Source: an uncultured Actinomycetota bacterium (lineage in GTDB: Bacteria; Actinomycetota; Thermoleophilia; Gaiellales; Gaiellaceae). Taken from it: a DNA stretch of 64,000 nucleotides. This document shows, piece after piece, positions 14,456 through 60,705 of the stretch. Where the stretch lies: assembly GCA_963765345.1 (NCBI GenBank), contig CAVXWI010000001.1, forward strand, positions 114,572-178,571, written 5' to 3'. The notes under the pieces were generated by a model. That model worked only from the letters and a program-made list of their open reading frames with translations. It did not search any database and was not told where the DNA came from. The first letter of the stretch is position 1. Every line of letters begins with the position of its first letter. Made by a program: the position numbers and the translations under genes.

Positions 14456-14460
14456 CAGAG

Positions 14461-16062: not shown

Positions 16063-16074
16063 ACGGACCGCCGG

Positions 16075-19258: not shown

Positions 19259-19441
19259 CGGTCGAATCGATTGCCGCCCTGTCACGGGGGGCGCCGTCGC
19301 GGGGATCGGAGCCCCCTGGATGATCACGTCGCCGCCATCGGCCGGTCGCTTCCGCACCCATGACCGACGCCGACATGAGAGTTCCCGAAGAGTCGCGACG
19401 GATACGTCGTCATCGCCGCGAGAACAGGCTAGGTTAAAGGA

Positions 19442-21593: not shown

Positions 21594-22442
21594 CTAGAGC
21601 CGTTCGGCGACGTAGAGCATCGCCAGATACGTCTTCCGCACCGTGCGTTCCGGACGCGCTTCGATCCGCTTGTGGATGCGTTCGAGAAGGAGCTCGCGGG
21701 CCTCGTCGTCGAGCGCCCGATGGTGTGAGTAGGTGCTGAGGACGGCGATGTAGTCGTCGGCGGTGTAGATCACGTCCCAGAGGTAGCGCCTCGCGCCGAC
21801 GTTGTGAAACCGGCGGCTCGCCTCGATCTCGTTGGTCACGACTTCATCGCTGTGATCCCCGAGCGCATCCGGATGCGGCAACCGCCAGGGACGCGAGTAG
21901 AAGGTGCCGTCGGCGCCAGCCTTCCTCGTCGGATCATCCGGTATGACGGCTTCGTAGTCCGCCTGGACTTCAGTGAAGAACGGATCGCCACCGGATGGAA
22001 GCACGTGTGCCGTCGAGACGAAGGCAAGCTTCCCGCGCACGCGGAGAAGATCGGCCGTCTTCGTGTAGCGCAGATCGGGCGCGAGCCAGTGAAATGCACT
22101 GAAAGCAACGACCGCATCGAATCCCAGACGCTCGGCCTGCCAGGTCTCGAAGTTCGCGTTGATCACCGAGACGCTCGGAAAGGCCGCCAGCTTGCTCTGC
22201 GCGGTGGCCGCGAGTCGCTCCCCGAGTTCGACACACGTGATCGCATAGCCGCGCTCGGCAAGCGGCAGCGTCGCCTGGCCGGTGCCGCAGCCGATCTCGA
22301 CGAGACGCGCCTGCGCCGGAAGCTGCGCGAGCGTAGCGAGGTCGTCGAAGATTTGCGGCGGGTAGTTCGGCCGGGCGCGGTCGTAAAGCTCCGGCACCTG
22401 CTCGAACGTCGTCCTCAGAAGCTCCCGTGGCGTGTCCGACAC
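21594..22442 (-). CDS. Class I SAM-dependent methyltransferase
   Basis: VEIGCGTGQATLPLAERG motif I, followed by DAVVAFSAFHW. Confidence 0.85.
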   Translation of the reverse strand: MSDTPRELLRTTFEQVPELYDRARPNYPPQIFDDLATLAQLPAQARLVEIGCGTGQATLPLAERGYAITCVELGERLAATAQSKLAAFPSVSVINANFETWQAERLGFDAVVAFSAFHWLAPDLRYTKTADLLRVRGKLAFVSTAHVLPSGGDPFFTEVQADYEAVIPDDPTRKAGADGTFYSRPWRLPHPDALGDHSDEVVTNEIEASRRFHNVGARRYLWDVIYTADDYIAVLSTYSHHRALDDEARELLLERIHKRIEARPERTVRKTYLAMLYVAERL

Positions 22443-22745
22443 GGCTCGATGATGCCCAAGGCGGCGCGTTCGCTGCCGGCCGCTTCGGTGGCATCGGGCG
22501 CACCCCGGCCGGCGGCGACCGGCCCGAACGAATGTCCGAACGTGCGCGTCGTGGCGGCCTCGCCGTCTACGAGGGGATTCTCCGCCCAGCGGAGCACCCC
22601 ATCGAGAAGCTCTCGACTCGCTGCGGGGAGGCTGAAGACGCGGGCGTCATGCGCGCGATCACCGTCCGGTTCATCTGAGCGCGCGTGACCAAGCCCTCCC
22701 TCGTCGCGGAACGAGACTCGGGAGGCATGCGCTTGCCGTCCGAGG

Positions 22746-23153
22746 CTATCGGGCGATCTCCCAGATGTGCCCCCCAGGGTCCATGAAACTCGCGGTTCGG
22801 ACTCCCCACGGGCGGTCCATCGGCCCGTTGAGCAGCCTCGCCCCACGCGCGATCAGCTCTGCACACATCGCGTCAACATCATCCACCTCGACAGTGAGCT
22901 GAAAGCGCGCTCCAGCCTCGCGGTCCCCGACGGACGCAGGCTCGACAAGAGGCACCGCCGCTTCCGTCTTCAGCAGGTTGACAAGCGTGCTCCCGAACTC
23001 GAAGACGGCGGAGTTCGCGTCCTCGAAGATGACGGGTAGCCCGAAGACCTCCTGGTAGAACCGCTTCGCCACCTGGAGGTCCTCGACGAACAACGTGATC
23101 GCTCTGATGCTTCTCGGCCAGGCAGCTGCTTCCGTACTCTCTTCGTCGGTCAT
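22746..23153 (-). CDS. VOC family (glyoxalase/bleomycin-resistance fold) protein
   Basis: ITLFVEDLQVAKRFYQEVFGL...RPWGVRTASFMDPGGHIWEI; start probably at the internal ATG (MTDEEST). Confidence 0.8.
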   Translation of the reverse strand: MTDEESTEAAAWPRSIRAITLFVEDLQVAKRFYQEVFGLPVIFEDANSAVFEFGSTLVNLLKTEAAVPLVEPASVGDREAGARFQLTVEVDDVDAMCAELIARGARLLNGPMDRPWGVRTASFMDPGGHIWEIAR

Positions 23154-44602: not shown

Positions 44603-45554
44603 CGAGCTGCGCGACGAGCTCGCCGCGATCGCGCCCGCGCGCGCCTGCTGCCGGCTCGCCGAGCTCTCGGCGCTCTACCACGCTGCCGGCACGTGGCACC
44701 TGCACGGCCACGGCGAGCTCTCTGTTCACCTCGACCTCGGCAGCGCCGCCGCCGCCCGGCGCGCGTTCAGCCTCCTGCGCGACCTCGGCATCCGCTCCGA
44801 GATCCGCACCCACCCCCGGCGGGCCTTCGACCGCGCGACCCGCTTCGAGCTCCTCGTCGAGGTCGACGCCGCCGCAGCGGCGCTCCTCCACGAGGCGGGT
44901 GTCCTCTCGCCGCGCGGGGCGCCGCTGCAGCGGCCGCCGAAGCGCGTCGTCGGGCGCTCCTGCTGCCGCGGCGCCTACCTGCGCGGTGCGCTGCTCGGTG
45001 CCGGCTCGCTCTCGGGGCCGCGCTCGCCCCAGCTCGAGCTGCGCGCGAGCGACGCCGAGGGCGCCCGCACGCTCGTCGCCGTCGCGGCGCGCGAGGGAGT
45101 CAGGCTCGCCATGGTCGAGCGGCGCGGCCACGCCGCCGCCTACGCAAGGTCGGGCGAGGCGATCGCCGACCTGCTCGCGCTCGCCGGCGCCAGCCGGGCG
45201 GCGCTCCGGCTCGACGAGCACGCCGTCGTCGCCGCGACGCGCTCGCAGGCAAACCGCCTCGCAAACGCCGACGAGGCGAACGTCAAACGCTCGGTGCGGG
45301 CGGCGCAGCGCCAGCTCGAGGCGATCCGGCAGCTCGACCTCGACGCGCTGCCGCGCAAGCTCGGCGAGATCGCGCTCCTGCGCCTCAGGCACCCGTCGCT
45401 CTCGCTCGCAGAGCTCGCGGCCAAGTGCCGGCCGCCGATCACGAAGGCCGCCGCCCACCACCGGCTGGCGGCGGTCGTCCAGCTCGCCGACGCGGAGGAG
45501 GGGGAGCTCCGAGGACGAACTCCCCCTCTGTCAACGCACGCTCTTTCTCGCTGA
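44589..45554 (+). CDS. whiA: DNA-binding protein WhiA
   Basis: MSLSDELRDELAAI...RACCRLAELSALYHAAG... (LAGLIDADG-like domains) plus a C-terminal HTH; canonical position upstream of gap-pgk-tpiA. Confidence 0.9.
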   Translation: MSLSDELRDELAAIAPARACCRLAELSALYHAAGTWHLHGHGELSVHLDLGSAAAARRAFSLLRDLGIRSEIRTHPRRAFDRATRFELLVEVDAAAAALLHEAGVLSPRGAPLQRPPKRVVGRSCCRGAYLRGALLGAGSLSGPRSPQLELRASDAEGARTLVAVAAREGVRLAMVERRGHAAAYARSGEAIADLLALAGASRAALRLDEHAVVAATRSQANRLANADEANVKRSVRAAQRQLEAIRQLDLDALPRKLGEIALLRLRHPSLSLAELAAKCRPPITKAAAHHRLAAVVQLADAEEGELRGRTPPLSTHALSR

Positions 45555-45718
45555 CGCCGAACGGGGTCTGAATTCGGCGTCAGGGGAACGTGGTCCCTCC
45601 GCGGGGTGAGTATCTCGCACGGTCAGGCGGCAATTCCAGGCGACTTGCAACCGATATTTCCGCAGCGACCGCGGCAGAGGGGACTGCGGGCGTGGCAGGT
45701 GCGCTACGGTGCGGCGCG

Positions 45719-47236
45719 GTGACCACCCCGTTCGAAGAGCTGCGCCAGCGACTGGCCGAGATCAGCGACGTCTCGCGCGCCGCCGCGCTGCTCAGCTGGG
45801 ACCAGAACGTGATGATGCCGCCGCGCGGGGCGCCCGCGCGGGCCGAGCAGCTCGCGACGCTCGGCCGGATCGTCCACGACAAGTTCGTCTCGCCCGAAAT
45901 CGGCCGCCTGCTCGACGAGCTCGCCCCCTTCGCGGCCGAGCACGACCCCGACTCGTTCGAGGCGCGCCTGATCACGGTGACGCGCGAGGACTTCGAGAAG
46001 GCGAGCAAGGTGCCGACCGAGCTGCGGGCCGAGATGTCGCGGTCGGCCTCGCTCGCGCTCCCCGTCTGGGTCGAGGCACGCAAGAACAACGACTTCGCGA
46101 GCTTCCTCCCGGCGCTGCGTGAGAACCTCGAGCTGCGCCGCCGCTACGTCGCCTGCTTCGAGGGCGACTACGCCGAGCCCTACGACGCCCTCCTCGACGA
46201 CTTCGAGCGCGGCCTGACGACGGCCGAGGTGCGAACGATCTTCGACTACCTGAAACAGGAGCAGGCGCCCCTCGTCAAGCAACTGGCGGCCGCCGAGGAC
46301 GAGGCGCCACCGGCCGGCCAGGTCTTCCCGATCGAGCGGCAGAAGGAGTTCGAGCTCGAGGTCGTGCGCCGCTTCGGCTTCGACGAGACGGCGTGGCGGC
46401 TCGACCCAACCGTGCACCCCTTCGCGACGGCGATCGGCGGCGAGGACATCCGCGTCACCACACGCTACTTCGACGACCGCCTCGACGGGCTCTTCGCGAC
46501 GATGCACGAGACCGGCCACGGCCTCTACGAGCACCAGATCGACCGCAAGCTCGACCGGACGCCGCTCGGCGGCGGCGTCTCGCTCGGGATGCACGAGTCG
46601 CAGAGCCGGATGTGGGAGAACCTCGTCGGCCGCTCGCTGCCGATGTGGCGTTTCTTCTTCCCGCGTCTGCTCAAGACGTTCCCCGAGGCCCTTGCCGGCT
46701 ACGACGTCGAGCGGTTCTACCGCGAGATCAACGCCGTCCGGCGCTCGCTGATCCGGGTCGAGGCCGACGAGGCCACCTACAACCTCCACATCATCCTCCG
46801 CTTCGAGCTCGAGCAGCAGCTCCTCGACGAGTCGTTCCCGCTCGAACAGCTGCCCGAGGAGTGGAACCGGCGGATGTGGGAGTACCTCGGGATCGAGGTG
46901 CCCGACAACCGGCGCGGCGTCCTCCAGGACACGCACTGGGCGATCGGCGCGATCGGCTACTTCTCGACCTACGCGCTCGGCAACCTGATCTCGGCGCAGC
47001 TCTGGGAGCGGATCACCGCCGAGCTGCCCGACCTCGAGCAGGGATTCGAGCGCGGCGAGTTCGACCCGCTGCGGGAGTGGCTGCGCGAGCACCTCCACCG
47101 CTACGGGCGCACGTTCTCGCCGGCCGAGACGCTCGAGCGGGCGACCGGGAGCCGCGGGATCGACCCCGAGCCGTACGTGCGCTACCTGCGTCGGAAGCTC
47201 GGCGCGGTCTACGGGCTGCCCGCGGCAGCGGGCTGA
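45719..47236 (+). CDS. M32 family carboxypeptidase (carboxypeptidase Taq-like)
   Basis: HETGHGLYE zinc motif plus HESQSR and IRVEADE blocks; GTG start is my choice (the ORF extends to 45590). Confidence 0.85.
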   Translation: MTTPFEELRQRLAEISDVSRAAALLSWDQNVMMPPRGAPARAEQLATLGRIVHDKFVSPEIGRLLDELAPFAAEHDPDSFEARLITVTREDFEKASKVPTELRAEMSRSASLALPVWVEARKNNDFASFLPALRENLELRRRYVACFEGDYAEPYDALLDDFERGLTTAEVRTIFDYLKQEQAPLVKQLAAAEDEAPPAGQVFPIERQKEFELEVVRRFGFDETAWRLDPTVHPFATAIGGEDIRVTTRYFDDRLDGLFATMHETGHGLYEHQIDRKLDRTPLGGGVSLGMHESQSRMWENLVGRSLPMWRFFFPRLLKTFPEALAGYDVERFYREINAVRRSLIRVEADEATYNLHIILRFELEQQLLDESFPLEQLPEEWNRRMWEYLGIEVPDNRRGVLQDTHWAIGAIGYFSTYALGNLISAQLWERITAELPDLEQGFERGEFDPLREWLREHLHRYGRTFSPAETLERATGSRGIDPEPYVRYLRRKLGAVYGLPAAAG

Positions 47237-47290
47237 GGGCAGCGACGCCTGGCGGCGGTTCTCCGGGCGCGTTTTCGCCGCTCTGACTAA

Positions 47291-48307
<1,017 letters not shown>

Positions 48308-48312
48308 GGCCG

Positions 48313-49362
48313 TTGCGTCTGCCGCGCTCGGTAGCCGAGGCCGACGTCGACGGGAAGGTCGTGCTCGTTCGGGCCGACCTGAACGTCCCGCTCGACGAGG
48401 GCCGGGTCGCCGACGACGCGCGCATCCGCGCCTCGCTGCCGACCGTGCGGCTGCTGCTCGACCGCGGCGCCCGCGCCGTACGCATCTGCTCGCACCTCGG
48501 CCGCCCCAAGGGCGAGGAGGACCGGGCCAGGTACGCGATCGCCCCGGTCGCCGCCCGGGTCGGCGAGCTCGTCGCCGACGGCCGGGTGACCGTGCTCGAG
48601 AACACGCGCTTCGACCCCGGCGAGACCGCCAACGACCCCGGCTACGCGCGGGTGCTCGCCGCCGGTTGCGATCTCTACGTCAACGACGCCTTCGGCTCGG
48701 CCCACCGGGCGCACGCCTCGACCGAGGCCGTCGCCCACCTCCTGCCCGCCTACGCCGGCCTGCTCCTCCTGGCTGAGCTGGAGCACCTCGGCCGCCTGCT
48801 CGGCGAGGTCGACCGTCCGTTCGTGATCGTCGCCGGCGGCGCCAAGGTCGACGACAAGGTCGGCGTCCTGAAGAACCTCGGCGCCCGCGCCGACCGGGTC
48901 CTGATCGGCGGCAAGATGGCCGAGGACGTGCGGGCCGAGAACCCGTTCTCCTTCCCGGTGCTGCTTCCGAGCGACGTCGTCGCCGCCGAGTCGTTCGCCG
49001 CCGACGCGGAGGCGCGGCTCGCCCCCTACGACGACCCGCCCGCCGGCTGGCTCGGGCTCGACATCGGCCCCGTCGCCCGCGAGGAGTTCGCCGCTGCGAT
49101 CGCGGACGCCGGGACCGTCTTCTGGAACGGCCCGATGGGCGTCTTCGAATGGCCCCGGTTCGCCGAAGGGACGCTCGCGGTCGCCCGCGCGGTCGCCGCC
49201 TGCCCCGGCTTCACCGTCGTCGGCGGCGGCGACTCGGTCCGTGCCGTCCACGAGGCCGGGCTCGCCGACAGCATCTCGTGGGTCTCGACCGGCGGCGGCG
49301 CGTCACTCGAGCTGCTCGAGGGCAAGGAACTGCCGGGCGTCGCGGCGATCCCGGAGCACTAG
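48313..49362 (+). CDS. pgk: Phosphoglycerate kinase
   Basis: KVVLVRADLNVPLDEG, ...SHLGRPKG, FVIVAGGAKVDDK and VGGGDS. Confidence 0.9.
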   Translation: MRLPRSVAEADVDGKVVLVRADLNVPLDEGRVADDARIRASLPTVRLLLDRGARAVRICSHLGRPKGEEDRARYAIAPVAARVGELVADGRVTVLENTRFDPGETANDPGYARVLAAGCDLYVNDAFGSAHRAHASTEAVAHLLPAYAGLLLLAELEHLGRLLGEVDRPFVIVAGGAKVDDKVGVLKNLGARADRVLIGGKMAEDVRAENPFSFPVLLPSDVVAAESFAADAEARLAPYDDPPAGWLGLDIGPVAREEFAAAIADAGTVFWNGPMGVFEWPRFAEGTLAVARAVAACPGFTVVGGGDSVRAVHEAGLADSISWVSTGGGASLELLEGKELPGVAAIPEH

Positions 49363-49363
49363 C

Positions 49364-50071
49364 GTGCTGATCGCCGGGAACTGGAAGATGTTCAAGGGCC
49401 CGGACGAGACCGGTGCCTTCTGTCGCGCCCTCCGCGAGGCCGACCTCGGCAGCGTCGAGGTGGTCGTCTGCCCGCCCTACGTCTCGCTCGGCGAGGCGGT
49501 GCAGGCGCTCGCCGGCACCGAGATCGGCGTTGCCGCCCAGAACGTCCACTGGGCGCCCGCAGGGGCGTTCACCGGCGAGGTCTCGGCGCCGATGCTGCGC
49601 GAACTCGGCGTCTACGGCACGATCGTCGGCCACTCCGAGCGGCGGCAGTACTTCGGCGAGACCGACGAGACCGTCGTCCGCCGGCTCGTCGCGGCGCGCG
49701 AGCACGGCCTGCACGCGATCGCGTGCGTCGGCGAGACCGAGTCGGAGCGCGAGGCGGGGGAGACCGAGGCCGTCCTCGCGCGGCAGGTGTCGGCGATCGC
49801 GGAGGGAGTCGCGGAGCTGGACGAGCTCGTCCTCGCCTACGAGCCCGTCTGGGCGATCGGCACCGGCCGGACGGCGACCCCGGAGCTCGCCCAGGAGGCG
49901 CACGCGTTCGTGAAGACGATCCTCGACGTGCCGGTGCTCTACGGCGGCTCGGTCAAGCCGGAGAACGCCGCCGAGCTCGCCGCCCAGCCCGACGTCGACG
50001 GCGCGCTCGTCGGCGGCGCCTCGCTCGACCTGGCATCGTTCGCGGCGATTTGCCGGGCAGCGTCCCCCTAG
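49364..50071 (+). CDS. tpiA: Triose-phosphate isomerase
   Basis: LIAGNWKM, VGHSERR, AYEPVWAIGTG and GGSV. Confidence 0.9.
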   Translation: MLIAGNWKMFKGPDETGAFCRALREADLGSVEVVVCPPYVSLGEAVQALAGTEIGVAAQNVHWAPAGAFTGEVSAPMLRELGVYGTIVGHSERRQYFGETDETVVRRLVAAREHGLHAIACVGETESEREAGETEAVLARQVSAIAEGVAELDELVLAYEPVWAIGTGRTATPELAQEAHAFVKTILDVPVLYGGSVKPENAAELAAQPDVDGALVGGASLDLASFAAICRAASP

Positions 50072-50079
50072 TCGCGCTC

Positions 50080-51495
50080 GTGATCGCCGACGGCTGGGGG
50101 TGCGCCCCTCCCGGCCCCGGCAACGCGGTCGCGCTCGCGGCGACGCCGGTCTTCGACTCGCTGCTCGCCCGCTACCCGCACACGACCCTCGCGGCCTCGG
50201 GCGAGGCGGCCGGGCTGCCGCCGGGACAGATGGGGAACTCGGAGGTCGGGCATCTGACGATCGGCGCCGGGCGGCGGCTCTACCAGGACCTGATGCGCGT
50301 GAACCGCGCCGTCGCCGACGGCTCCCTGGCCGCGAACCCGGCCCTGCAGGCGGCGTTCGCCCGCGCCGGCCGCGTCCACCTGCTCGGGCTCGTCTCCAGG
50401 GGCGGTGTGCACTCGCATCTCGACCACCTGCGGGCGCTCCTCGACCTGGCGCCGGAGGACACATGGATCCACGCCTTCACCGACGGCCGCGACGTCTCCC
50501 CGCACGCGGCGCTCGCCGACCTGGCGACGCTGCCCGGCGAGCGCATCGCGACGGTCGCCGGGCGCTACTACGCGATGGACCGTGACAACCGACCCGAGCG
50601 GACAGAGCAGGCGCTCGACGCGCTCATGCGCGGCCGCGGCGCCGAGGCGCCGAACGCCCTCGCGGCGGTGCAGGCGAGCTACGACGCCGGCATCAGCGAC
50701 GAGTTCATCAAGCCGACGGTGATCGAGGGGACACCGCGGCTCGCGCCCGGCGATACCGCGGTCTTCTTCAACTTTCGCCCCGACCGGGCCCGCCAGCTCG
50801 CGCGGGCGCTCGTCGTCGCCGGCGTCGAGCTGACGACGATGACCCGCTACGGGGCCGACCTCGACACCCCCGTCGTCTTCGCGGAGCAGACTGTGCCGGC
50901 GACCCTCGCCGAGGTGCTCGCGGACGCCGGCGTCCGCCAGCTCCACGTCGCCGAGACGGAGAAGTACGCGCACGTGACCTACTTCTTCAACGGCGGGATC
51001 GAGGAGCCGAGGCCGGGGGAGACGCGGATCCTTGTCCCGAGCCCGCGCGATGTCCGCAGCTACGACCTGCGGCCCGAGATGGCGGCGGAGGAGGTCACGG
51101 ATCGCTTCTGCGCCGAGGTCGGCGACGGCTACGGCTTCGCGCTCGTCAACTTCGCGAACCCGGACATGGTCGGACACACGGGCGTCCTCCCGGCCGTCGT
51201 CGCGGCGGTCGAGACGACCGACCGCTGCCTCGGCCGGGTCGTCGAGCAGGTCGGCCGCCTCGGCGGCGTCTGCCTGGTCACCGCCGATCACGGCAACGCC
51301 GAGCAGACGCTCGAGGCGGACGGCGTCTCGCCGCACACGGCGCACACGACGAATCGCGTGCCCCTGATCGTCAGCGGCGAGGCGGCTTTGCGGGAAGGCG
51401 GCGAGCTCGCCGACCTCGCCCCGACCGTGCTCGCGCTGCTCGGACTCGCCCCGCCGCCGGAGATGACCGGTAAAGATTTGTTGAAGCACCCTTAG
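50080..51495 (+). CDS. gpmI: 2,3-bisphosphoglycerate-independent phosphoglycerate mutase
   Basis: IADGWG, GNSEVGHLTIGAGR, ...HAFTDGRDV and ADHGNAE. Confidence 0.9.
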   Translation: MIADGWGCAPPGPGNAVALAATPVFDSLLARYPHTTLAASGEAAGLPPGQMGNSEVGHLTIGAGRRLYQDLMRVNRAVADGSLAANPALQAAFARAGRVHLLGLVSRGGVHSHLDHLRALLDLAPEDTWIHAFTDGRDVSPHAALADLATLPGERIATVAGRYYAMDRDNRPERTEQALDALMRGRGAEAPNALAAVQASYDAGISDEFIKPTVIEGTPRLAPGDTAVFFNFRPDRARQLARALVVAGVELTTMTRYGADLDTPVVFAEQTVPATLAEVLADAGVRQLHVAETEKYAHVTYFFNGGIEEPRPGETRILVPSPRDVRSYDLRPEMAAEEVTDRFCAEVGDGYGFALVNFANPDMVGHTGVLPAVVAAVETTDRCLGRVVEQVGRLGGVCLVTADHGNAEQTLEADGVSPHTAHTTNRVPLIVSGEAALREGGELADLAPTVLALLGLAPPPEMTGKDLLKHP

Positions 51496-51514
51496 GTTTC
51501 CCTAAAGAGTTCAA

Positions 51515-52123
51515 TTGCCAGGCGTACAGTGGTTTGCGGTGTCACTCCCCCAGCCGGACCCGGACGTCCTCCGCAAAGCACAGCAGGGTGATCGCGAGGC
51601 GTTCGCGTCGATCGTCCGAGCCTACGAGACGCCGATCCACAACTACATCCTCCGGCTGACCGGCGACCGCACGCTCGCCGAGGACCTGACGCAGGAGGTT
51701 TTCCTCCGCGTCTACAACGGCTTGCCCCGCTTCTCGCTGCGCTGCAAGTTCACGACCTGGCTCTTCCAGGTGACGAAGAACCGCGTGCTCGACGAGCTGC
51801 GCTCCCGCGAGCGCCGCCCCTCCGGGATCAGCTTCGACGAGATCCCGCCGCTCGAGAGCTACGACCAGCCCGCCGAGCGCGGCGAGACGATCGACGCGAT
51901 CTGGCGGGCCGTCCACGAGCTCAACCCGGATCTGAAGATGGCGCTCCTCCTGCGCGACATCGTCGGGCTGCCCTACACCGAGATCGGCGACGTGCTCGAG
52001 ATCACGCTCTCGACCGTCAAGTGGCGCATCTTCAAGGCGCGCGAGGAAGTCCAGCTCTCGCTGGCCCGCGAGGGCTACACGTTCGAGAAGTCCGTGCGGA
52101 CGCCCGGCGAGATCCTCGTCTAG
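51515..52123 (+). CDS. ECF-type RNA polymerase sigma-70 factor
   Basis: Region 2 (YILRLTGDRTLAEDLTQEVFLRVY) and region 4 HTH (GLPYTEIGDVLEITLSTVKWRIFKAR). Confidence 0.85.
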   Translation: MPGVQWFAVSLPQPDPDVLRKAQQGDREAFASIVRAYETPIHNYILRLTGDRTLAEDLTQEVFLRVYNGLPRFSLRCKFTTWLFQVTKNRVLDELRSRERRPSGISFDEIPPLESYDQPAERGETIDAIWRAVHELNPDLKMALLLRDIVGLPYTEIGDVLEITLSTVKWRIFKAREEVQLSLAREGYTFEKSVRTPGEILV

Positions 52124-52137
52124 CCCGTCGGCGACTC

Positions 52138-52867
52138 TCAGAGCCCGTGGGCCAGGCGGCCCGCGAGCGTCTCGGGCAGGCCGGCCGCCCTGATCTCCGC
52201 CTGCGTCCGCTCGAGCGGATAGGCGGTTCGGCGGAAGCTGGCACGGCCGGCGGCGAGGTCGAGCAGCAGCCACGCCGCCCGCGGGTCGCCGCCGCGCGGC
52301 TGGCCGACCGACCCCGGGTTGACGAGCCAGCGCGAGGCGGCGAGGTCGATCTCGTCGCCGGCGTTCGCGAGCCCGCCCGAGAGGGCGCCGCCGTCGAAGC
52401 CGATCTTGAGGGCGACGTGGCTGTGGCCGACGAGAACGAGGGGGGCGGTGGGTGACCTCGAGGCTCGGCCGCGCGGCTGCCTCGCTGAGGACGTAGTCCC
52501 AGACCGGGTCGAGCGGGCTGCCGTGGAAGAGCTCGGCGCCGGGGCGCGCCGCCTGCGGGGCAAGCCCGCCGAGGAAGCGCCGAGCCTCCTCCGAGAGCGC
52601 CCCCTGCGTCCAGCGGACGGCGACGGCGGCGTCGCCGTTGAAGTCGTCGACCGGCAGGGCGCCGATGACCGCCAGGTCGTGGTTGCCGGCGAGGCAGAGC
52701 GCCGCATCCTGCTCGACCCGCTCGCAGCAGCGGTTCGGCTCGGGCCCGTAGCCGACGACGTCGCCGAGGCACCAGAGCTCGTCGGGGGCCTCCGCCGCCA
52801 CCTCGGCCAGAACGGCCGAGAGCGCGTGGTGGTTCCCGTGGATGTCAGAGACGACGGCGACTCTCAT
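52138..52867 (-). CDS. Metallophosphoesterase (calcineurin-like, YfcE type) with an apparent 1-nt frameshift near 52445
   Basis: MRVAVVSDIHGNHHAL...CLGDVVGYGP...LAGNHD is in one frame; ...APLVLVGHSHVALKIGF...VNPGSVGQPRGGD is in the adjacent frame; the crossing is at a gaggggggcgg G-run. Confidence 0.7.
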
Positions 52868-53133
52868 CGGCTGCCCGAGCGGGCGCTAACCCTAGCGCCG
52901 CCGCAGGCCGGCGGCGCCGGCAATTGCGAGGGGAGTCCGCCCGTCCGCGCGTCTGCGCCCGACCGCCCCGCGGGAGGCCGCGGAGGCGACCGTCCTGCCT
53001 GCACCGGGCCGCATGGCAAGCTTCGGCGACGCGGCCACCCGGGCCGACGGCGCGGGTACCGCGCGCGCAAACGGGCGAGGCGAGGACGGAGAGGAGGGCC
53101 GAGGCATGATCGAGAGACCCGGCGGCGGGGACG

Positions 53134-54664
53134 TTGGCGCCTAGCGCCCTCGGCCGCCTCGAGGCGGCGCTCGGCGGACTCGCCGGCAGCGAGGTGTCGC
53201 TCGAGCGGCCGCGCGACGCCGCCAACGGCGACTACTCGACGAACGTCGCGATGCAGCGCGCCCGCGAGCTCGGGCGCTCGCCGCGTGACATCGCCGAGGA
53301 GCTGGCGAAGCGCGCGGTCGAGGTGCTGCCCGAGGTCGAGCGGGCGCAGGTCGCGGGGCCGGGCTTCCTCAACCTCTGGGTCACCGACCCGTTCATCGGC
53401 GAGGTGCTCGCCGAGATCGACTCGGGCTACGGCGGCGGCTCCGCCGAGGAAGCCGAGCGGATCCAGGTCGAGCTCGTCTCGGCCAACCCGACGGGGCCGC
53501 TGACGGTCGCCTCGGGCAGGAACGCCGCCTACGGCGACACGGTCGCCCGCCTGCTCGCCTTCGCCGGACACGAGGTCGAGCGCGAGTACTACTACAACGA
53601 CGCCGGCGCCCAGATGGACCGGTTTCGCGCCTCCGTCGAGGCGGTCCGCGCCGGCAAGGAGCCACCCGAGGACGGCTACCACGGCGCCTACATCGCCCAG
53701 ATCGCCGCCGAGCCGGGCGACCCGGTGCCGCGGATGCTCCACGAGATCGAGAGGACGCTGAAGCGGTTCCGGATCCACTTCGACTCGTGGGCGCGCCAGA
53801 GCGAGCTCGAGCGAGACCTGGAGTCGATTCTCGACGGGGCTCCAGACCTACGAGCGGGACGGGGCGCTCTTCGTGCGCTCGACCGACTTCGGCGACGACA
53901 AGGACCGCGTGCTGGTCCGCTCGGCGCGGATGGGCGGGCTGCCCACCTACGAGGCGGCCGACGTCGCGTACCTGCGCGACAAGCTCGAGCGGGGGTACGA
54001 CCGCGCCATCTACGTGCTCGGGGCCGACCACCACGGCGTCGCGGGCTGGTACGGGGTTGTCGCGCGGATGCTCGGGTACGCGCCCGAGCGGGTCGAGGTC
54101 CTCCTCTACCAGCTCGTCCACCTGACGCGGGGCGGCGAGCAGGCGAAGATGTCCAAGCGGCGCGGCGATGTCGTCTTCCTCGACGAGTTCCTCGACGAGG
54201 TCGGGGTCGACTTCGCCCGCTGGTTCCTGATCGACCGGGGCCACGACCAGACGATCGAGATCGACATCGACCTCGCCGTCGAGCGGTCGCGCAAGAACCC
54301 GGTCTACTACGTCCAGTACGTGCATGCGCGGATCAGCGGCATCTTCCGCGAGGCCCCCGACGGCGCCGCGCTCGATCCGGCGCCGCGGCTGCCGCTCGCC
54401 TCCGAGGAGCGTGAGCTCGTCAAGCGCCTTGCCGAGTTTCCGGGGATCGTCCGCGAGGCGACCGAGCGGCGCGGCCCGCATGCGATCGCCGTCTACGCGA
54501 TCCGGCTCGCCGACGACTTCCATCGCTTCTACCACGCTCATGTCGTCCTCGCGGCGAAGGGCGGCGACCACGAGTCGTTCCGGCTCGCGCTGGTCGGCGC
54601 CACGCGTGACGTGGTCGCCCGCTGCCTCGACCTCCTCGGCATCGACGCGCCGGAGCGGATGTAG
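53134..54664 (+). CDS. argS: Arginine--tRNA ligase (apparent 1-nt frameshift near 53835)
   Basis: N-terminal add-1 domain, PTGPL (HIGH-class motif region), ...DGALFVRSTDFGDDKDRVLVRSARMGGLPTYEAADVAYL..., the KMSKRRG (KMSKS) motif and the anticodon-binding C-terminus; the frames cross in a gacgggg run. Confidence 0.9.
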
Positions 54665-55026
54665 TGCCCGAACGGCTCGCCGACCCGGCGGTCGTCCCGG
54701 CCGCCGGCACACCCGCGAAGCGGATCGAGGAATACGTTGGCCGCGTCAGCACGGGCGAGAGTGCCGTCAGCATCGCGCGCATGCGCAGCCCGCAAGGTTG
54801 GTCCGAGCCGGCACAGGCGCCCGCGTTCGACGAGTACACGCTCGTCCTCGCGGGCTTGCTGGTTGTCGAGCACGAGGGCGGCCGGCTTGAGATCCGCGCC
54901 GGCGAGGCTGTCCACACGAGACCGGGGGAGTGGGTGAGGTACAGCTCACCCGACCCGGGCGGCGCCGAGTACATCGCGGTCTGCGTGCCGGCGTTCTCGC
55001 CGGCGATCGCTCACCGAGAGCGCTGA
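54664..55026 (+). CDS. Cupin domain protein
   Basis: Small beta-barrel (…YTLVLAGLLVVEHEGGRLEIRAGEAVHTRPGEWVRYSS…); its GTG start overlaps the argS stop (taGTG). Confidence 0.7.
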   Translation: MPERLADPAVVPAAGTPAKRIEEYVGRVSTGESAVSIARMRSPQGWSEPAQAPAFDEYTLVLAGLLVVEHEGGRLEIRAGEAVHTRPGEWVRYSSPDPGGAEYIAVCVPAFSPAIAHRER

Positions 55027-55074
55027 GCGGCCTTCCAGGCGCGTGCTCGGTGCGTCGTAGTCGGCGGAAGGGGA

Positions 55075-55262
55075 TGCCGGCTCGACGAGGGCCGAAGCTC
55101 ACGCCGCGCGACACACGCGACGCGTTTGCGTCGCAGGCTGGGGATCAGGACTTGATCTCAGCCGACCTGGTGCCGATCCTTGGTCACAGCAGTGCTGGCA
55201 TCACGGCGGCGATCCCTTTGCACACCTTCAATCGTGAGGCGCGCGAGCGGCGGCGTGGGTGA
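55075..55262 (+). pseudogene. C-terminal relic of a tyrosine recombinase (phage-type integrase)
   Basis: LTPRDTRDAFASQAGDQDLISADLVPILGHSSAGITAAIPLHTFNREARERR aligns with integrase box II (…LRPHDLRHTFAS…LLGHSS…T…Y.H…). Catalytic H and Y are substituted (D, P), and there is no N-terminal part. Confidence 0.5.
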
Positions 55263-55266
55263 CGCC

Positions 55267-55281
55267 ATGACGATCGCGGCT
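55267..55281 (+). repeat. Direct repeat copy 1 (catgacgatcgcggc)
   Basis: A 14-15 nt exact repeat of 55674-55688, directly after the integrase relic's stop. Confidence 0.5.
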
Positions 55282-55480
55282 GGAGGCGCCTGATGTTCTG
55301 GAGGAAGCGGATACGTCGAGCTCCGCGAGGAGCTACAGCGCAGACAGACAGAGGCGGAAGAACGGCCGGTCTGGCACGGATCCATCAGCCCGCCTCCTGC
55401 GCACGAGATGAGCCCGGAGGAGGCGGCGAAATACGAGGCTCGAACGGGCGATCTGCAGTCCGACGAGTGGGACGGCTGAC

Positions 55481-55678
55481 ATGCCTGATCTCCAGTTCTG
55501 GCGCCAAGCATATGCGCGGGAGCTTCGCGAAATCAGCGCCATCATCGACCGGCTCGCGAGCGAACTTGAAGACGGGGTCGGGGTAGGTGGCGGCCTCGTC
55601 GACCGTCTCCGCATCCTGGAGATGAAGGTTGGCGAACTGAAGATCAGCGTCGAGGAGGACTGGCGGCACGCGCGATGA
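55481..55678 (+). CDS. Small coiled-coil hypothetical protein (65 aa)
   Basis: MPDLQFWRQAYARELREISAIIDRLASELEDGVGVGGGLVDRLRILEMKVGELKISVEEDWRHAR; the upstream protein-like ORF ends TGAcATG. Confidence 0.3.
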   Translation: MPDLQFWRQAYARELREISAIIDRLASELEDGVGVGGGLVDRLRILEMKVGELKISVEEDWRHAR

Positions 55679-55688
55679 CGATCGCGGC
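55674..55688 (+). repeat. Direct repeat copy 2 (gatgacgatcgcggc)
   Basis: Matches 55267-55281; the two copies bracket the small-ORF pair about 190 nt upstream of tRNA-Gly. Confidence 0.5.
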
Positions 55689-55871
55689 GGGGCCCGACGA
55701 GGGCCCGCGAAGTCGAAGACCGCCTGAAAGGTGCGCAGCGCGACTGACGCTGCCAGCCCGATGCCCGAGAGGACGAGAGTTCGAGGCCCGGCGCTCGGCT
55801 GTCAAAGAGCCTGGCCGAAAAGCGTCGGTCGACCAGACGGGCCTCAGGATTTGGCTACGCTAGATGCTCTT

Positions 55872-55944
55872 GCGGGTGTAGCTCAGTTGGTAGAGCATCA
55901 GCTTCCCAAGCTGAGGGTCGCGAGTTCGAGTCTCGTCGCCCGCT
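55872..55944 (+). tRNA. tRNA-Gly (CCC)
   Basis: GCGGGTGTAGCTCAGTTGGTAGAGCATCAGCTTCCCAAGCTGAGGGTCGCGAGTTCGAGTCTCGTCGCCCGCT; anticodon loop UUCCCAA. Confidence 0.9.
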
Positions 55945-55948
55945 TCGA

Positions 55949-55974
55949 TCTTGGCCCCTCGCGGGGCCTTTTTT
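55949..55974 (+). terminator. Rho-independent terminator after tRNA-Gly
   Basis: Hairpin ggcccctcgcggggcc followed by tttttt. Confidence 0.65.
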
Positions 55975-56381
55975 CGCTCAACGGTTCCGTTCCTAGCACC
56001 GACCGGGCTTACGGGCTCTGGTGGGTCTTCAGGCCGATTGCTCGCCGCGAGTCGATTGCGGGGGTGTCGACGGCGCCTACTGTGCGGCCGCCGAACGCGG
56101 GCAGGTGCTTGTCGAGCGCGGAGCGATGTAGACCGACGCGCGAGGCAGTTCATCCGTCGCGGCGCGCGACCCTGCCGGTGCCGAGGCACTTGATCGAGAA
56201 AACGCACTCGTCCGCCGTGCCGTGCGCACTACTCGCAGTTTTTCTGGAGCACGCAGACAGGGTTCTGCCGGTCGCTGCGCCTGTCTTGCAAACCCCTCGA
56301 ACGCAGTGCTAGGCAAACCAGACAACGCGTGTCAGGCTCCCGGGGTCTGCGGCCCATCCAAGGCGAGACGAAGGAGGCACC

Positions 56382-58334
56382 GTGGCAAGACTTCGGTTGT
56401 TTGTCCAGCTGGGCGTCGCACTGCTCATGTCTGTCTTGGCGCTCGGCGGGCCGTTAGGGGCGCAGGCAAACCCGGGCACCGTAACGATCACGAAGCACGC
56501 CGATCTCGGCTTCACTACGAGCGTCCCCGTCGACGTGGACACCGGGGTGGCGAGCCCACCGTGTCTGTTGAGCTTTGTCGGCTGCCTCTTTCACGGTGCG
56601 GTTGCCTTCCACGGCACGCTCAAAGTCGATGTGACTCTGGGGACCGACGTCGCGCTGACGATACGACCCTGGTGGACCTGAACACGCCGAACGGGCCTCT
56701 ACCGGTGTCGGTCACGTATGCGCCGACGCCTGGTGGATCGACGGTCAACTACGTGCTCAGCGGCAACATGATCTTTAACTTCGACTGGGTGTTCCGGGTG
56801 CCCGACAACGTTGCCGTTCACTGCGACGTCGGCGTCCAATACGTTCACGGCGCCGATGGACGCTGATGCACCGGTCACCATTCCGGGCTCCAGCTCGGGC
56901 ATCACCCTCAACGTCGGCTCGCTCGATGTGATTACCGCATCGCTCGGGAGCGGCCTGACGCTGGCGCCGGCTCCTCCCGGCCTCGTTCCCGGGCTGGGCG
57001 GAGCCGCGGCCCTGGTTCAGGTCTCGGGAGCGAGTGGCGCGCCAGTCCTTCCGATCGAGTGGGACTCTTCCGGTTCGTCGCAGAGTTTCACGCTGACGAC
57101 GCCGGCGAATCCGACGCCGCTTGGGATCTCGCTCGGACCGCTCGTCAACTGGGTCGATACATCCGGAAATGCGCAGATCAATCTCCACTGGACCAGCGAC
57201 TTTCAGAACACGGTGGCCGTTGTCGCAGACATCGCCAGCGCCGGCGTCTGCCTCGTCGTCGACTGCTCGATCAGTGACCCCAATCCAATCAGCCTGTTTT
57301 CCGGAGGGCTGGGGCCGGCGTATACGGCAGCAGGCCTCGACACGACTCTCGGGAATGCAATCGGCGGCACAGCGGATCGCTCGTCGCGAGCAGGGTCGCG
57401 GCCGGATTCGTTCCCGTACCGCTGACCTCGCCACCGCACGACTCGATTCCGCCGCTGACAACGGGCGCAGTCGACTTCGCCGTGCCGTCTGTGGCGATCA
57501 CGGGCGTGCCGGCCGGGGTCGTGCTCAAAGGCGACGCGGTCAGCCTCGCGGCTGCCCGCGAACGGAGGGACCGGTCTGTACACCTACGCCTGGACGAAGA
57601 ACGGTGCCCCGTTTGCGACGACGCAGAGCATCACCGACACACCAGCACTCGGAGACACGACTTACGCGGTGACCGTGACCGACTCGCAGGGGGCAGTCTC
57701 CAACACTGCGACCACGCTGGTGCACGTCTACGACTTCACGGTCGCAGGCAGTCCGACGAGCCTCACGACCCTCACAACGGGAACGAACACCTACGGGGTG
57801 ACGGACAGCTTGTTGGCCGGTTCGCCGACGTCTGGGCTACCCACGATTGGGCTGTCGTTGTCCGGCCTGCCCTCCGGAGCATCGGTGGGCTTCAGTCCCC
57901 CGAGCGGGAGTGCGGGAGGTTTTTCCTCGACGGCGACGATCACCACCGCCAGCGCGCCGCCTGGGACGTACGCTCTCACACTTACTGGCACCGACGCCAG
58001 AGCACTGATCGGCGGGTCACGGTCGGCCACCTTGAGTCTGACCATTCTCACCCCAGCCCAGGCAATCCCGAACGTGATCGTGACCGTGCAAGGACTTCGG
58101 ACCTCCGGCGTGCTCAACGGAGGCCAGGCGAACTCGCTCAGTGTGAAGTTGAGTCACGCCATCGGCAGCCTCACCTCGAAACCCGATCAACCGACCGGCT
58201 GCAACCAACTGCAGTCGTTCGTCAACGAAGTCAACGACTACGTGTCGACGGGAGTCCTGACGCCCGCGCAGGCAACCACCTTGCTGGGCGGCCCGCTCGG
58301 GATCCTCGCGATCATGGCAGCGGTGCCATGCTAA
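56382..58334 (+). pseudogene. Large secreted surface protein (~650 aa) with a PKD/Ig-like domain, broken into at least 5 frame segments
   Basis: Strong RBS (aaggagg) plus GTG; signal peptide MARLRLFVQLGVALLMSVLALGGPLGAQA. Coding continues through frames 56382-56681, ~56640-56866, 56811-57425, ~57426-57560 and 57560-58334. The last segment contains TGLYTYAWTKNG...TYAVTVTDSQGAVSNTATTLVHVYD, an Ig/PKD-like signature. Confidence 0.6.
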
Positions 58335-58365
58335 GAGCCGCGATCTGAACCGACCAAAGCAGAGA

Positions 58366-58393
58366 GAAGGCCCGCACCAGCGGGCCTTCTCTC
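58366..58393 (+). terminator. Putative terminator hairpin after the surface-protein gene
   Basis: gaaggcccgcaccagcgggccttc inverted repeat. Confidence 0.45.
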
Positions 58394-58551
58394 AACCCTC
58401 TGACTCTCGATCCACCGTTAGGCCCGCCGTTGCCATTACACACCCGAGGTCGTGGAGGGGTGGGCCGGGCCGCAACCGCGGAAGCGTTTCGAGCTGCCAG
58501 CGGGCCGGCGGGGCGGTTTCGAGAACACGGGGCCCGCCGAAGGCGTGCCGG

Positions 58552-58968
58552 GTGTCCTCTACACTCCAAGACGCCGTGCCAGATCAACACCACCTCGAGT
58601 GGTCTGCTGCCGCGGTCCGATCCACGGGAGGGACTCTCGAGCTCCGCGTCAGCATCGACGGCCAACCTGACGAGTTGTGGCTCAGGGCGTTCTGGGACTG
58701 CTGGGGCGAAGTCAAGACGTTCGATGCCAGGTGGGGAACGCTAGAGCTCTTGGGTCAGACCGTCGAGGTACGGGGCATCCTGGAGGATGCGGACACCGAA
58801 GCGCTCAGGACAGAGCTTGACGCAATTGTTGAGCGCGCGAACGCGCTGGCGGAGGAGATGCGGAGCGAAGACACAGCTGCGGCCGCTCGGTGGCAAGCGC
58901 AGCGCGAGGAGAGCGCGCGCCGGGCGGGCGAGATGACCGATGCATTCCGCGAAGACTCGGACGGGTAG
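58552..58968 (+). CDS. Acidic hypothetical protein
   Basis: 138-aa ORF from a GTG start (…LELRVSIDGQPDELWLRAFWDCWGEVKTFDARWGTLELLGQTVEVRGILEDADTEALRTELDAIVERANALAEEMR…); no family recognised. Confidence 0.45.
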   Translation: MSSTLQDAVPDQHHLEWSAAAVRSTGGTLELRVSIDGQPDELWLRAFWDCWGEVKTFDARWGTLELLGQTVEVRGILEDADTEALRTELDAIVERANALAEEMRSEDTAAAARWQAQREESARRAGEMTDAFREDSDG

Positions 58969-59251
58969 GCGAGTGGGGCTCGGGCAAGCCACCGCACCGC
59001 CGCGGCGTCGTCCCTCGTCGGCTCGGCCGAGATGAGCCGCGAGCTCTCCGACGAAACGGGTCTCGCCGCGCGCTCGTTCGGCGGCGACGTCGACCCGATC
59101 CTCTCTGTTGCGAGCTTGACGGTGTCGCTGTCGTCGGCCCGAACGACGCGGTCGCGACGGTCAGGTTCTATGGACGCTGCCGGCTGCGTGAATTTGCAAA
59201 GCCGGGAAGGCCGACGATTTGCCGGTTGACACAAAACATGGAGGCAACGAG

Positions 59252-59461
59252 ATGAGCATCGATTACGACAAGGATCTTGAGCTCACTGTTGGGGACGCGG
59301 AGGGCGTGGCCGGCGGACGCAGCACAAAGCGCACCGCGGCGAAGTCCTCGGCCCACGCATCATCGGCCTCGGTCATGCCGAGCCTCGGCGGAACACCCGC
59401 TCCTTCGACCAGCGGTCCCGAAGACAATCAGCCTTACCCGGACGAAGACATCGAGTGCTAG
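59252..59461 (+). CDS. Small ORF (69 aa) with double-glycine-leader-like N-terminus
   Basis: GGAGG lies 7 nt before the ATG. MSIDYDKDLELTVGDAEGVAGG | RSTKRTAAKSSAHASSASVMPSLGGTPAPSTSGPEDNQPYPDEDIEC: the first 22 aa resemble GG-type leader peptides (L.ELT...V.GG), the rest is Ser/Thr/Ala/Pro-rich and ends in Cys. A strong hairpin follows at 59468-59505. Confidence 0.45.
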   Translation: MSIDYDKDLELTVGDAEGVAGGRSTKRTAAKSSAHASSASVMPSLGGTPAPSTSGPEDNQPYPDEDIEC

Positions 59462-59467
59462 ACGGGT

Positions 59468-59505
59468 AGGGCGACTGGCCCGACCTGAGAACCTCGGGTC
59501 GGGCC
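59468..59505 (+). terminator. Strong stem-loop directly after the small ORF
   Basis: gactggcccgac / gtcgggccagtc, a perfect 12-bp inverted repeat with a 12-nt loop. Confidence 0.5.
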
Positions 59506-60038
59506 AGTCCGGGCAGAACCGAACGGCACGCTCCGGGCTCTCTCTGCTCGCCGTCCGCGAATGTTCCGGCCTCGTGGGGGGTTACCCTGCACGCCTGGAC
59601 CGGATCGCCCGGGGCTAACCGGCAGGAGAGTACTCACCGCTCCCGTCGGGCCCAGCGTCATCACGGCCGTCTAACGGAGAGGATCCACACTGGCTTCAGG
59701 AGCCGTGATGCCGAGGGTCGCCGGTGCGAGCGCACGGCCCGTTTGACCCTCGTCGCTCGTCGTTGGGCGGCAGGGACATCGAGGGCTCGGGCGTGTGAGA
59801 CGGACTGCAAACGATCTCGCGTCGTTTTGGTGAATACGGTCCCGGCCCGAATCGACAATCGGTAGATCCACTCCCAGCGTGCTGGGGCCCGGTCGAGCAC
59901 CGCGGGCTCGTCGTCGATCGGGACCCGCTTGCTCGAAGCACGGTGACGAGGTCGTCGTACCCGCCACACCTGAAACCAGGGCACATCTCGGCTCCCGGAG
60001 GGTGTCAGCACCTTCCGACACGAGTGAGTGGATGGTCG

Positions 60039-60410
60039 TCACAGCGCTCGCCCGAGCACGAGGCCGACATACGCGAGCGTGATCCCAGCACCGAGTGTGC
60101 CGAGCGCATACACCGCGGCGATCATGGTCGAGTCTCGCTGACCGAGCTGAATCGTCTGGGCCGCCAGCGCCGAGAATGTCGTGTACGAGCTCAGAAACCC
60201 GACAAGGAGCAGGTTGCGGAGTTGGGGGTGCTCGGAAAAGCGGGGTGTGAGCGCGCCGGTCAGGATTCCGATGGCCAGCGCCCCGCTGAGGTTCACCGTC
60301 AGGGTTCCGATGTAGTGCGTGCCGTCTTGGCCGTTCGGCAACACCTTCTCGACGGCGTAACGCGAGAGTGCTCCAAGGGCCGCAGCTGCGGCGATCACAA
60401 GGGCAGTCAT
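60039..60410 (-). CDS. crcB: Fluoride ion channel CrcB/FluC
   Basis: 123 aa with four TM helices (MTALVIAAAAALGALSRYAVEKVL...GTLTVNLSGALAIG...LLVGFLSSYTTFSALAAQT...), typical of CrcB; preceded by a fluoride riboswitch. Confidence 0.85.
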   Translation of the reverse strand: MTALVIAAAAALGALSRYAVEKVLPNGQDGTHYIGTLTVNLSGALAIGILTGALTPRFSEHPQLRNLLLVGFLSSYTTFSALAAQTIQLGQRDSTMIAAVYALGTLGAGITLAYVGLVLGRAL

Positions 60411-60436
60411 GGCGTGGACTCCTTTGACATCTCGAC

Positions 60437-60485
60437 TAGGAGCCATCAGCCGTGACGGCGGTTCTAGGCGAGCCCCATCGCCAGT
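60437..60485 (-). promoter_or_regulatory. Fluoride riboswitch (crcB RNA motif)
   Basis: The mRNA-sense sequence GGCGAUGGGGCUCGCCUAGAACCGCCGUCACGGCUGAUGGCUCCUAG matches the crcB consensus GGnGAUGGnnuuCnCC..AACCGCC..GCUGAUGAUnCCU. An aaggag RBS and the crcB ATG follow. Confidence 0.8.
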
Positions 60486-60705
60486 ACACAGCGTACCGGC
60501 GTGCGGCCCCGAATGCACGCGGTTGGGATGATGGCGACGTAGGAGTGCACGCCAGGCCCGGTTTTCGCCGGGTCACGCCACGAAACCATTTCCCGACCGC
60601 GGCCGCGCTTGAGCTGCCCCTCCCCTCCGGTCGAGCTCGATGCCGCCGTTTTCGTCGCCGCGGCGCCGCGGGATTCACGAGATCTTGCAACAATCATGGC
60701 TGAGC

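Follow-up and report, generated by a model that had tools for sequence, protein, structure and literature searches.

The question raised by this locus is how the DNA around a single glycine tRNA gene came to be assembled, and whether it represents the remains of a mobile element. The stretch analysed here (the window, 64,000 nucleotides) covers positions 114,572 to 178,571 of contig CAVXWI010000001.1 from an uncultured member of the Gaiellaceae (Actinomycetota), and the region in question, the islet, extends from about 55,030 to 60,680 around a gene for tRNA-Gly(CCC). The initial annotation combined an integrase relic, the tRNA, short direct repeats and atypical, partly decayed cargo into the footprint of one old tRNA-targeted integrative element. 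Our analysis points to another history: with a probability of roughly 0.6, the region is a remnant islet, fixed and immobile, surrounding a native tRNA gene that behaves as a recombination hot spot, formed in at least three layers and not derived from one recognisable element. The reading starts from three features:

55095 to 55262, plus strand: C-terminal stub of a tyrosine recombinase, about 55 amino acids (aa), from box II to the position of the catalytic tyrosine, assigned by profile and decoy tests

55872 to 55944, plus strand: tRNA-Gly(CCC), called by ARAGORN and by Rfam (70.4 bits against a threshold of 29)

55953 to 55975, plus strand: hairpin resembling an intrinsic terminator (GGCCCC-TCGC-GGGGCC followed by TTTTTT), directly after the tRNA

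The open reading frame (ORF) whose tail stops at 55262 reads ...KLTPRDTRDAFASQAGDQDLISADLVPILGHSSAGITAAIPLHTFNRE..., and it is probably a genuine integrase remnant with mutated catalytic residues, as had been proposed. Curated libraries and direct searches were silent on it, with no match in Pfam, PHROGs or NCBIfam at E-values up to 1-10, none in the PDB by phmmer and none in a word-indexed search of 5.8 billion proteins; custom integrase profiles were therefore built and tested against decoy fragments. One profile was made from 40 integrases related to the genuine integrase of locus L038 (Solirubrobacterales-type), and a second, more diverse one from 113 representatives. By hhalign, the stub aligned with the last 55 columns of the first profile, from box II to the tyrosine position, at P = 1.7e-4, and with the second profile at P = 5.9e-5 (probability 65%). 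The stub lines up in register with the very end of the integrase C-terminus, and the 15-residue spacing between FAS and LGH is kept.

The decoy tests gave a consistent result. When 1044 six-frame fragments of the window were searched with hmmsearch --max, the stub ORF ranked first at 9.6 bits (E = 0.021), followed by a runner-up at 4.7 bits, and among 15,501 fragments from the window and 81 other loci it ranked third, after the L038 integrase and a fragment of locus L025 that is an integrase C-terminus too. Its score was equalled by one of 20,000 composition-preserving shuffles (empirical P 5e-5). When the stub itself served as query, against a pool of 266 integrases and the 15,501 decoys, integrases accounted for 1.7% of the pool but for the first eight non-self matches and 41 of the first 60; as they belong to one family, these ranks do not count as many independent tests. 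In a tblastn search of 2.3 gigabases of phage DNA, the best match (E = 0.01, 38% identity over 55 aa) reads LTPHQLRHAFAT...LLGHSKVELTMDVYTH and includes ...LLGHS...DVYTH, which is an unmistakable tyrosine-recombinase catalytic C-terminus.

The stub retains the second catalytic arginine and the histidine of LGH, whereas the histidine of HxxR is replaced by arginine and the nucleophilic tyrosine by proline. The N-terminal 85% or so of the recombinase is missing, about 55 of some 350-400 residues being left, and the spacing and motif residues fit an apparent relic rather than a functional recombinase. Neither an intact recombinase nor a further integrase-like fragment was found in the window by a regular-expression scan, jackhmmer and profile searches. 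A fragment at 59470-59862 resembling an integrase N-terminus (4.5 bits, E = 0.7) had no coding signal and was treated as noise.

The tRNA gene, in turn, is native, because it is syntenic with argS across the Gaiellaceae, and its sequence is typical of the family. The upstream gene order (sigma factor, metallophosphoesterase, argS) is maintained across 31 argS loci of the family. Of these loci, 22 have tRNA-Gly(CCC) 1.1-9.3 kb 3' of argS, with the tRNA in the same orientation as argS in 17, the usual order being argS, glpX, (c17), class I fba and tRNA-Gly(CCC). A -10-like box, TAGAT(G), stands just 5' of the tRNA and has a conserved TAGA(A)T counterpart in the relatives, several of which also carry a hairpin straight after the tRNA. 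The C-terminal half of the window's ArgRS (53873-54664) is matched best by metagenome-assembled Gaiellaceae genomes, with identities of up to 76%. The claim of a tRNA-Gly(CCC) gene with its own terminator was borne out by the ARAGORN and Rfam calls and by the hairpin.

Both sides of this native gene have been altered. On the 5' side, glpX and fba are absent from the whole 64 kb window, and their position is taken by the stub, small ORFs and the following gene, which was not found at the 31 Gaiellaceae argS loci:

54664 to 55026, plus strand: cupin gene of the left flank (Pfam Cupin_2, 6.3e-6; GC content at third codon positions, GC3, of 0.87), with codon usage like that of the core

Beyond the 3' end of the tRNA, the DNA differs in nearly every relative, so that the 3' side is the variable one, also where the tRNA is inverted.

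In the relatives, this variable side shows what integration at the gene looks like. In four loci a small islet (0.2-2.2 kb) is delimited by the complete tRNA-Gly(CCC) gene on one side and by a second copy of the gene's 3' half on the other, and a fifth locus has an integrase stub:

L010, 14629 to 16531: islet with the tRNA 3' half repeated at +1786 (score 47; BLAST 47 nt, 100% identity)

L061, 16837 to 18037: islet with the repeat at +1084 (score 45; BLAST 45 nt, 100% identity)

L030, on the reverse strand: islet with the repeat at +2135 to +2182 (score 45.5)

L004, 5926 to 6208: islet with a 28-nt repeat (score 25.5)

L025, 17482 to 17721, plus strand: integrase C-terminal stub, ...LLGHANVQTTATRIYAG..., with the tyrosine retained (13.3 bits)

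The repeats of L010, L061 and L030 are 45-48 nt long and lie 1.1-2.2 kb downstream of the tRNA, those of L010 and L061 being perfect. The second tRNA-half copy of L010 is itself called as a tRNA by ARAGORN, with an unrelated 5' half. The L025 stub lies 43 bp from the 3' end of its tRNA-Gly(CCC) (17764-17837, minus strand) and converges on the tRNA. These observations establish tRNA-Gly(CCC) as a real integration site in the Gaiellaceae, always on its 3' side. No integrase-like sequence was detected in the islets of L010, L061, L030 and L004, the L025 stub is the only integrase found near tRNA-Gly in the relatives, and a regular-expression scan with jackhmmer returned one integrase among the 81 loci, that of L038. 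The small islets have nothing in common with the islet of the window. From its translation, judged by eye, the L010 islet encodes a GNAT-like acetyltransferase.

The window does not share this arrangement. A partial direct repeat of the tRNA-Gly 3' end, suggested as a check for an attachment (att) site, was searched for over 8 kb downstream, and the best local alignment scored 11, which is what dinucleotide shuffles reach on average, whereas the relatives, serving as positive controls, scored 45-47. A candidate right-hand site at 59710-59730 (17 of 21 matches) was rejected as its score was at the shuffle mean, and a tRNA-like fragment at 55771-55797 (21 of 27 matches) because it reflected a shared T-loop 9-mer at chance level. 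An upstream match at 52340-52367 (score 16, reached by 0 of 200 shuffles) lies inside the conserved metallophosphoesterase gene and was likewise rejected as an att site. The position of the stub adds to this. Elements that integrate into the 3' end of a tRNA lie downstream of it, and the stub is 610 bp upstream of the tRNA 5' end, in the same orientation as the tRNA, a layout at odds with such integration.

Between the stub and the tRNA, an exact repeat of 14-15 nt bracketing two small ORFs had been put forward as a further trace of an element, and the following features are present there:

55267 to 55280, plus strand: 14-mer ATGACGATCGCGGC, copy 1

55675 to 55688, plus strand: 14-mer, copy 2, an exact repeat overlapping the stop codon (ATGA) of orfB

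55481 to 55678, plus strand: orfB, 65 aa, without known family

The 14-mer does occur twice, and only twice, in the window, 408 bp apart, neither copy touching the tRNA. However, exact direct repeats of 14 nt or more with copies no further than 500 bp apart number seven in the window (0.9 in shuffles), and the 14-mer, as one of these seven, was rejected as an att core: the repeat is real yet at background level and unremarkable for the host genome. Only one of the two small ORFs stands. With a start codon and GC content at the three codon positions of 0.74/0.39/0.74, orfB has a coding-like pattern, and no match to it was found in Pfam, PHROGs, NCBIfam or viral contigs, whereas the reading frame 5' of it, which stops at 55479, lacks a start codon in both of the strains compared below.

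The second strain was found through an identical cupin protein, and its contig is the only close relative:

ENA ERZ25039482, contig_17787: sister contig, 98.7% identical to window positions 44663 to 59855

The sister contig holds the same stub, orfB (its protein 100% identical), tRNA, secreted-protein gene, acidic protein and small ORF. The secreted-protein gene lies on the 3' side of the tRNA:

56382 to 58334, plus strand: gene for a secreted protein of about 650 aa, with a signal peptide, an Ig/PKD-like middle and a weakly FIMAH-like C-terminus

58362 to 58393, plus strand: perfect 14-bp hairpin, a likely terminator, following the secreted-protein gene

This gene had been described as a large, frame-broken surface-protein gene. 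In the window it is indeed spread over several frames, broken by single-base indels at 56661, 56670, 56786, 57374 and 57555 (+1, +1, +1, -1 and +1, net in-frame) beside roughly a dozen substitutions, but it is not decayed, as the orthologue in the sister contig is an intact ORF of 634 aa. Across the alignment of the two contigs there are 171 substitutions and 25 indels, distributed as 59 and 20 in the islet (4.9 kb) and 112 and 5 in the 10.3-kb core, with about equal substitution densities of 1.1-1.2%. Many of the indels are at homopolymer edges. Core genes are affected as well: single-base indels frameshift argS (53835) and the metallophosphoesterase gene (52447) in the window, while in the sister contig argS is intact (509 aa) and the M32 carboxypeptidase gene and the signal peptide of the secreted protein are frameshifted (L081, 2088 and 11740). 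As core genes are frameshifted in both contigs, both assemblies appear to contain indel errors, and the frame breaks of the secreted-protein gene are most likely assembly indel noise, or very recent mutations, and not old decay. They are read in this way because the ratio of indels to substitutions, about 1:3, is far above that of neutral decay. Pseudogene calls in the window need caution given long-read indel errors.

The cargo had also been called atypical for the lineage, which did not hold for the secreted protein. It has more than 200 homologues, and the 120 listed are full-length proteins of 629-754 aa with 73-82% identity, from soil metagenomes, one of them named as Gaiellaceae. In six genomes (L104, L105, L107, L108, L109 and L110), the gene occurs in six different non-mobile contexts. 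Domain matches of the intact sister-contig protein remained below the Pfam cutoff (FIMAH, E = 0.005; Ig_3, E = 0.096), the FIMAH profile PF22888 scoring 17.8 bits against a gathering cutoff of 24.8; one homologue has been labelled 'FIMAH domain' by the Joint Genome Institute. A scan of viral contigs returned only a generic Ig/PKD-like domain match of about 60 aa for the secreted protein, and a search of the literature on FIMAH and on Gaiellales integrases and tRNAs found nothing relevant. In three genomes the homologous genes match the GC content of their own genome (0.64-0.68), and the GC3 of the window gene (0.76-0.80) is below that of argS, the cupin gene and the glycosyltransferase gene (0.87-0.95), which together fits acquisition from a lower-GC relative.

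The initial annotation had also noted an orphan acidic protein and a small leader-peptide-like ORF further downstream, and both are present:

58552 to 58968, plus strand: acidic protein, isoelectric point 4.3, without known family (168 aa as called in the sister contig)

59252 (or 59219) to 59461, plus strand: small ORF of 69 aa preceded by a strong ribosome-binding site (GGAGG), its protein being 100% identical in the sister strain

Library searches gave no family assignment for the acidic protein, orfB or the 69-aa ORF; the acidic protein had only a sub-threshold match to DUF1840 and no viral relatives in the viral-contig scan. Neither the acidic protein nor the small ORF was found near the secreted-protein homologues in the four loci scanned (L104-L107). 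The 69-aa ORF carries a GVAGG motif and a C-terminal cysteine and is followed by a strong 17-bp hairpin (59473-59509). With an acidic, leader-like N-terminus ending in GVAGG and a tail rich in serine, threonine and proline, it resembles the precursor of a ribosomally synthesised and post-translationally modified peptide; no modifying enzymes for such a peptide were found nearby.

The composition of the region changes together with its gene content. The GC content of the window is 0.69 overall and uneven, and from about 55000 to 60700 it is 0.64-0.68, down from 0.70-0.77. The GC3 of the islet genes is 0.72-0.80, against 0.85-0.95 in the flanking genes (sigma factor, argS, cupin, mem91, glycosyltransferase and methyltransferase). 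The low-GC3 genes begin past the tRNA terminator, so that the variable DNA abuts the 3' end of the tRNA. The proposed check of a GC profile thus returned a composition distinct from that of the flanks, though similar zones exist elsewhere in the window. Two such zones, at about 8000-11000 and 14500-23000, combine low GC content with weak codon periodicity and many short ORFs, adjoin tRNA-Asn (11641-11715) and tRNA-Leu (14460-14544), and could be islets or error-rich stretches.

At the right edge of the islet, the two strains differ outright:

59856 to 60677: strain-variable slot, occupied in the window by an 822-bp cassette of crcB and a riboswitch, and by different DNA in the sister contig

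60039 to 60413, minus strand: crcB (Pfam CRCB, 1.9e-22)

60430 to 60491, minus strand: fluoride riboswitch RF01734 (51.4 bits against a threshold of 34)

The RNA motif lies upstream of crcB on the same strand, which confirms a fluoride riboswitch-crcB unit. The window and the sister contig cease to align after 59855 and match again from 60678 on, at 96.9% identity, and the sister slot (L111, 10604-19271) instead holds 8,668 bp encoding NuoH-, NuoL/M-, NuoCD- and NuoB-like subunits and Usp, a gene set similar to that of a group 4 hydrogenase or of complex I. The collinearity of both flanks of the slot marks the difference as a genuine replacement polymorphism rather than the product of a chimeric assembly. 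No direct or inverted repeats, integrase or insertion sequence (IS) element were seen at the slot junctions. The possibility that argS and the cupin gene are directly followed by crcB elsewhere had been raised; this order was never seen, and crcB is absent from the sister-contig locus. A metagenome scan for synteny of the right-flank glycosyltransferase returned no relative with an adjacent crcB and was uninformative, and exact-protein look-ups of crcB and the glycosyltransferase found nothing on record. The stretch of about 580 bp of lower-GC non-coding DNA described before crcB is present (59462-60038, about 577 bp), but its GC content, 0.67-0.68, is like that of the rest of the islet, and it lies downstream of crcB, not upstream, given that crcB is on the minus strand.

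Taken together, these results suggest how the islet could have been built. In one layer, on the 5' side of the tRNA, the ancestral glpX-fba pair would have been replaced by the cupin gene, the dead integrase stub and one or two small ORFs. In another, on the 3' side, about 3.9 kb of low-GC3 DNA would have been added, with three apparently functional genes (secreted protein, acidic protein and small peptide), and its codon usage, resembling that of lower-GC relatives, suggests acquisition from within the lineage. The third would be the slot at the right edge, filled with crcB and its riboswitch or with the hydrogenase-like cluster depending on the strain. The stub and the 3'-side cargo may have arrived via integrase-mediated events at or near tRNA-Gly. 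The region cannot move now, because it has no intact integrase and no att pair.

Several points weigh against this reading. The stub is under every curated family threshold, its E-value at the level of the window is only 0.02-0.2, and, lying upstream of the tRNA, it departs from the canonical layout, so that any link between the two is tentative. Low GC3 is not rare in the window (similar zones at 8-11 kb and 14-23 kb), and gene-specific or expression-related composition may account for it. Indels are about eight times as dense in the islet as in the core, a difference not obviously explained by sequencing error alone. The sole close relative, at 98.7% identity, is too close to show an islet-free state, and relatives with 60-76% ArgRS identity have no islet genes at the locus, but their rearrangement is too extensive for an empty site to be delimited. 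The same genes in the same order, which in the absence of an integrase would have spoken against a mobile origin, were found only in this near-identical strain, and the stub is present there.

Four other explanations were considered. That a single old integrative element targeted tRNA-Gly, with the stub, the direct repeats and the 3' cargo as its decayed parts, appears unlikely to us. The real integrase stub near the tRNA, the atypical composition and the use of tRNA-Gly(CCC) as a proven att site in relatives speak for it, and these parts of the earlier proposal stand. The geometry does not agree, however, as the stub lies 5' and the cargo 3' of the tRNA whereas the relatives' elements lie wholly on the 3' side, between the intact tRNA and the 3'-half repeat. 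Moreover, there is no att repeat and the 14-mer is at background, the main cargo gene is conserved, with an intact copy in the sister contig, and frame breaks with an indel to substitution ratio of about 1:3 are implausible as decay. A variant in which the Gaiellaceae share a docking site, with integrase-less cassettes of 1.1-2.2 kb inserted at tRNA-Gly(CCC) and moved in trans, would make the 3' genes of the window, and perhaps the crcB/hydrogenase slot, part of the same traffic with their att sites erased; we regard this as decidedly doubtful.

It is quite unlikely that the locus has no mobile history, being a rearrangement-prone piece of chromosome in which the stub is a chance likeness in an arginine- and alanine-rich, high-GC frame and the low GC3 is due to gene-specific composition and non-coding DNA. 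The lack of a curated family match for the stub would agree with this, as would noise reaching 8.6-8.8 bits among the 15,501 fragments (9.6 for the stub), the other low-GC3 zones and the six non-mobile contexts of the secreted-protein homologues; the register with the integrase C-terminus, including the 15-residue FAS-LGH spacing, the shuffle test, the independent database-wide match on the catalytic motif in phage DNA and the enrichment of integrases among the top ranks all argue against it. Very unlikely, finally, is that the oddities of the islet (frame breaks, clustered indels and the loss of similarity at 59855) are artefacts of a chimeric or poorly polished mixed-strain long-read assembly. 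Frameshifts in argS and other core genes of both assemblies and the indels at homopolymer edges would be expected from such artefacts, but the collinear flanks of the slot (59856-60677) indicate a clean replacement, and the stub, the tRNA, the gene order and the GC3 shift are identical in two independent assemblies. A layered, immobile islet around the native tRNA therefore remains the explanation we prefer.

A separate observation was made at the start of the window, where a partial 23S rRNA gene (1-1677) spans 1677 nt against 1063 model positions, leaving about 600 nt extra. Within it, 953-1270 on the plus strand matches the group I intron family RF00028 with 31.4 bits, below the gathering score of 50 (E = 1e-5), and possibly represents such an intron within the 23S rRNA gene of a Gaiellaceae member.

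The locus itself is of little importance beyond annotation. In long-read metagenome assemblies, a sister genome or the raw reads are needed before frame-broken genes are taken for decayed ones, and a weak, sub-threshold integrase stub can be validated by targeted profiles and decoy fragments. The recurrent att site at tRNA-Gly(CCC), with its repeat-bounded small islets, may help the mapping of genomic islands in abundant uncultured soil actinobacteria.

Three kinds of known system allow a comparison. With the tyrosine recombinases and phage integrases of PF00589, the box II region of the stub aligns in register (LTPxxxRxAFAS, 15 residues, LGHS, 8-9 residues, the tyrosine position and a histidine), and the stub differs in having proline for the tyrosine and arginine for the histidine of HxxR and in a score under the Pfam reporting thresholds. 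Like flexible genomic islets, the right edge holds alternative contents, an 822-bp cassette or an 8.7-kb cluster, in one slot with collinear flanks, although no flanking repeats, integrase or IS element mark its junctions. The tRNA-associated systems for comparison are the actinomycete integrative elements of the pSAM2/SLP1 type and mycobacteriophage L5, which integrates into a tRNA-Gly. As in these islands and elements, variable and compositionally distinct DNA lies at the 3' end of the tRNA with an integrase remnant nearby, and the relatives of the window also show the intact tRNA with a 3'-half repeat of about 45 nt. The window differs from them in lacking an att pair, an intact integrase and genes for replication, transfer or excision, in carrying its stub 5' of the tRNA, and in a cargo that includes a conserved gene typical of the lineage.

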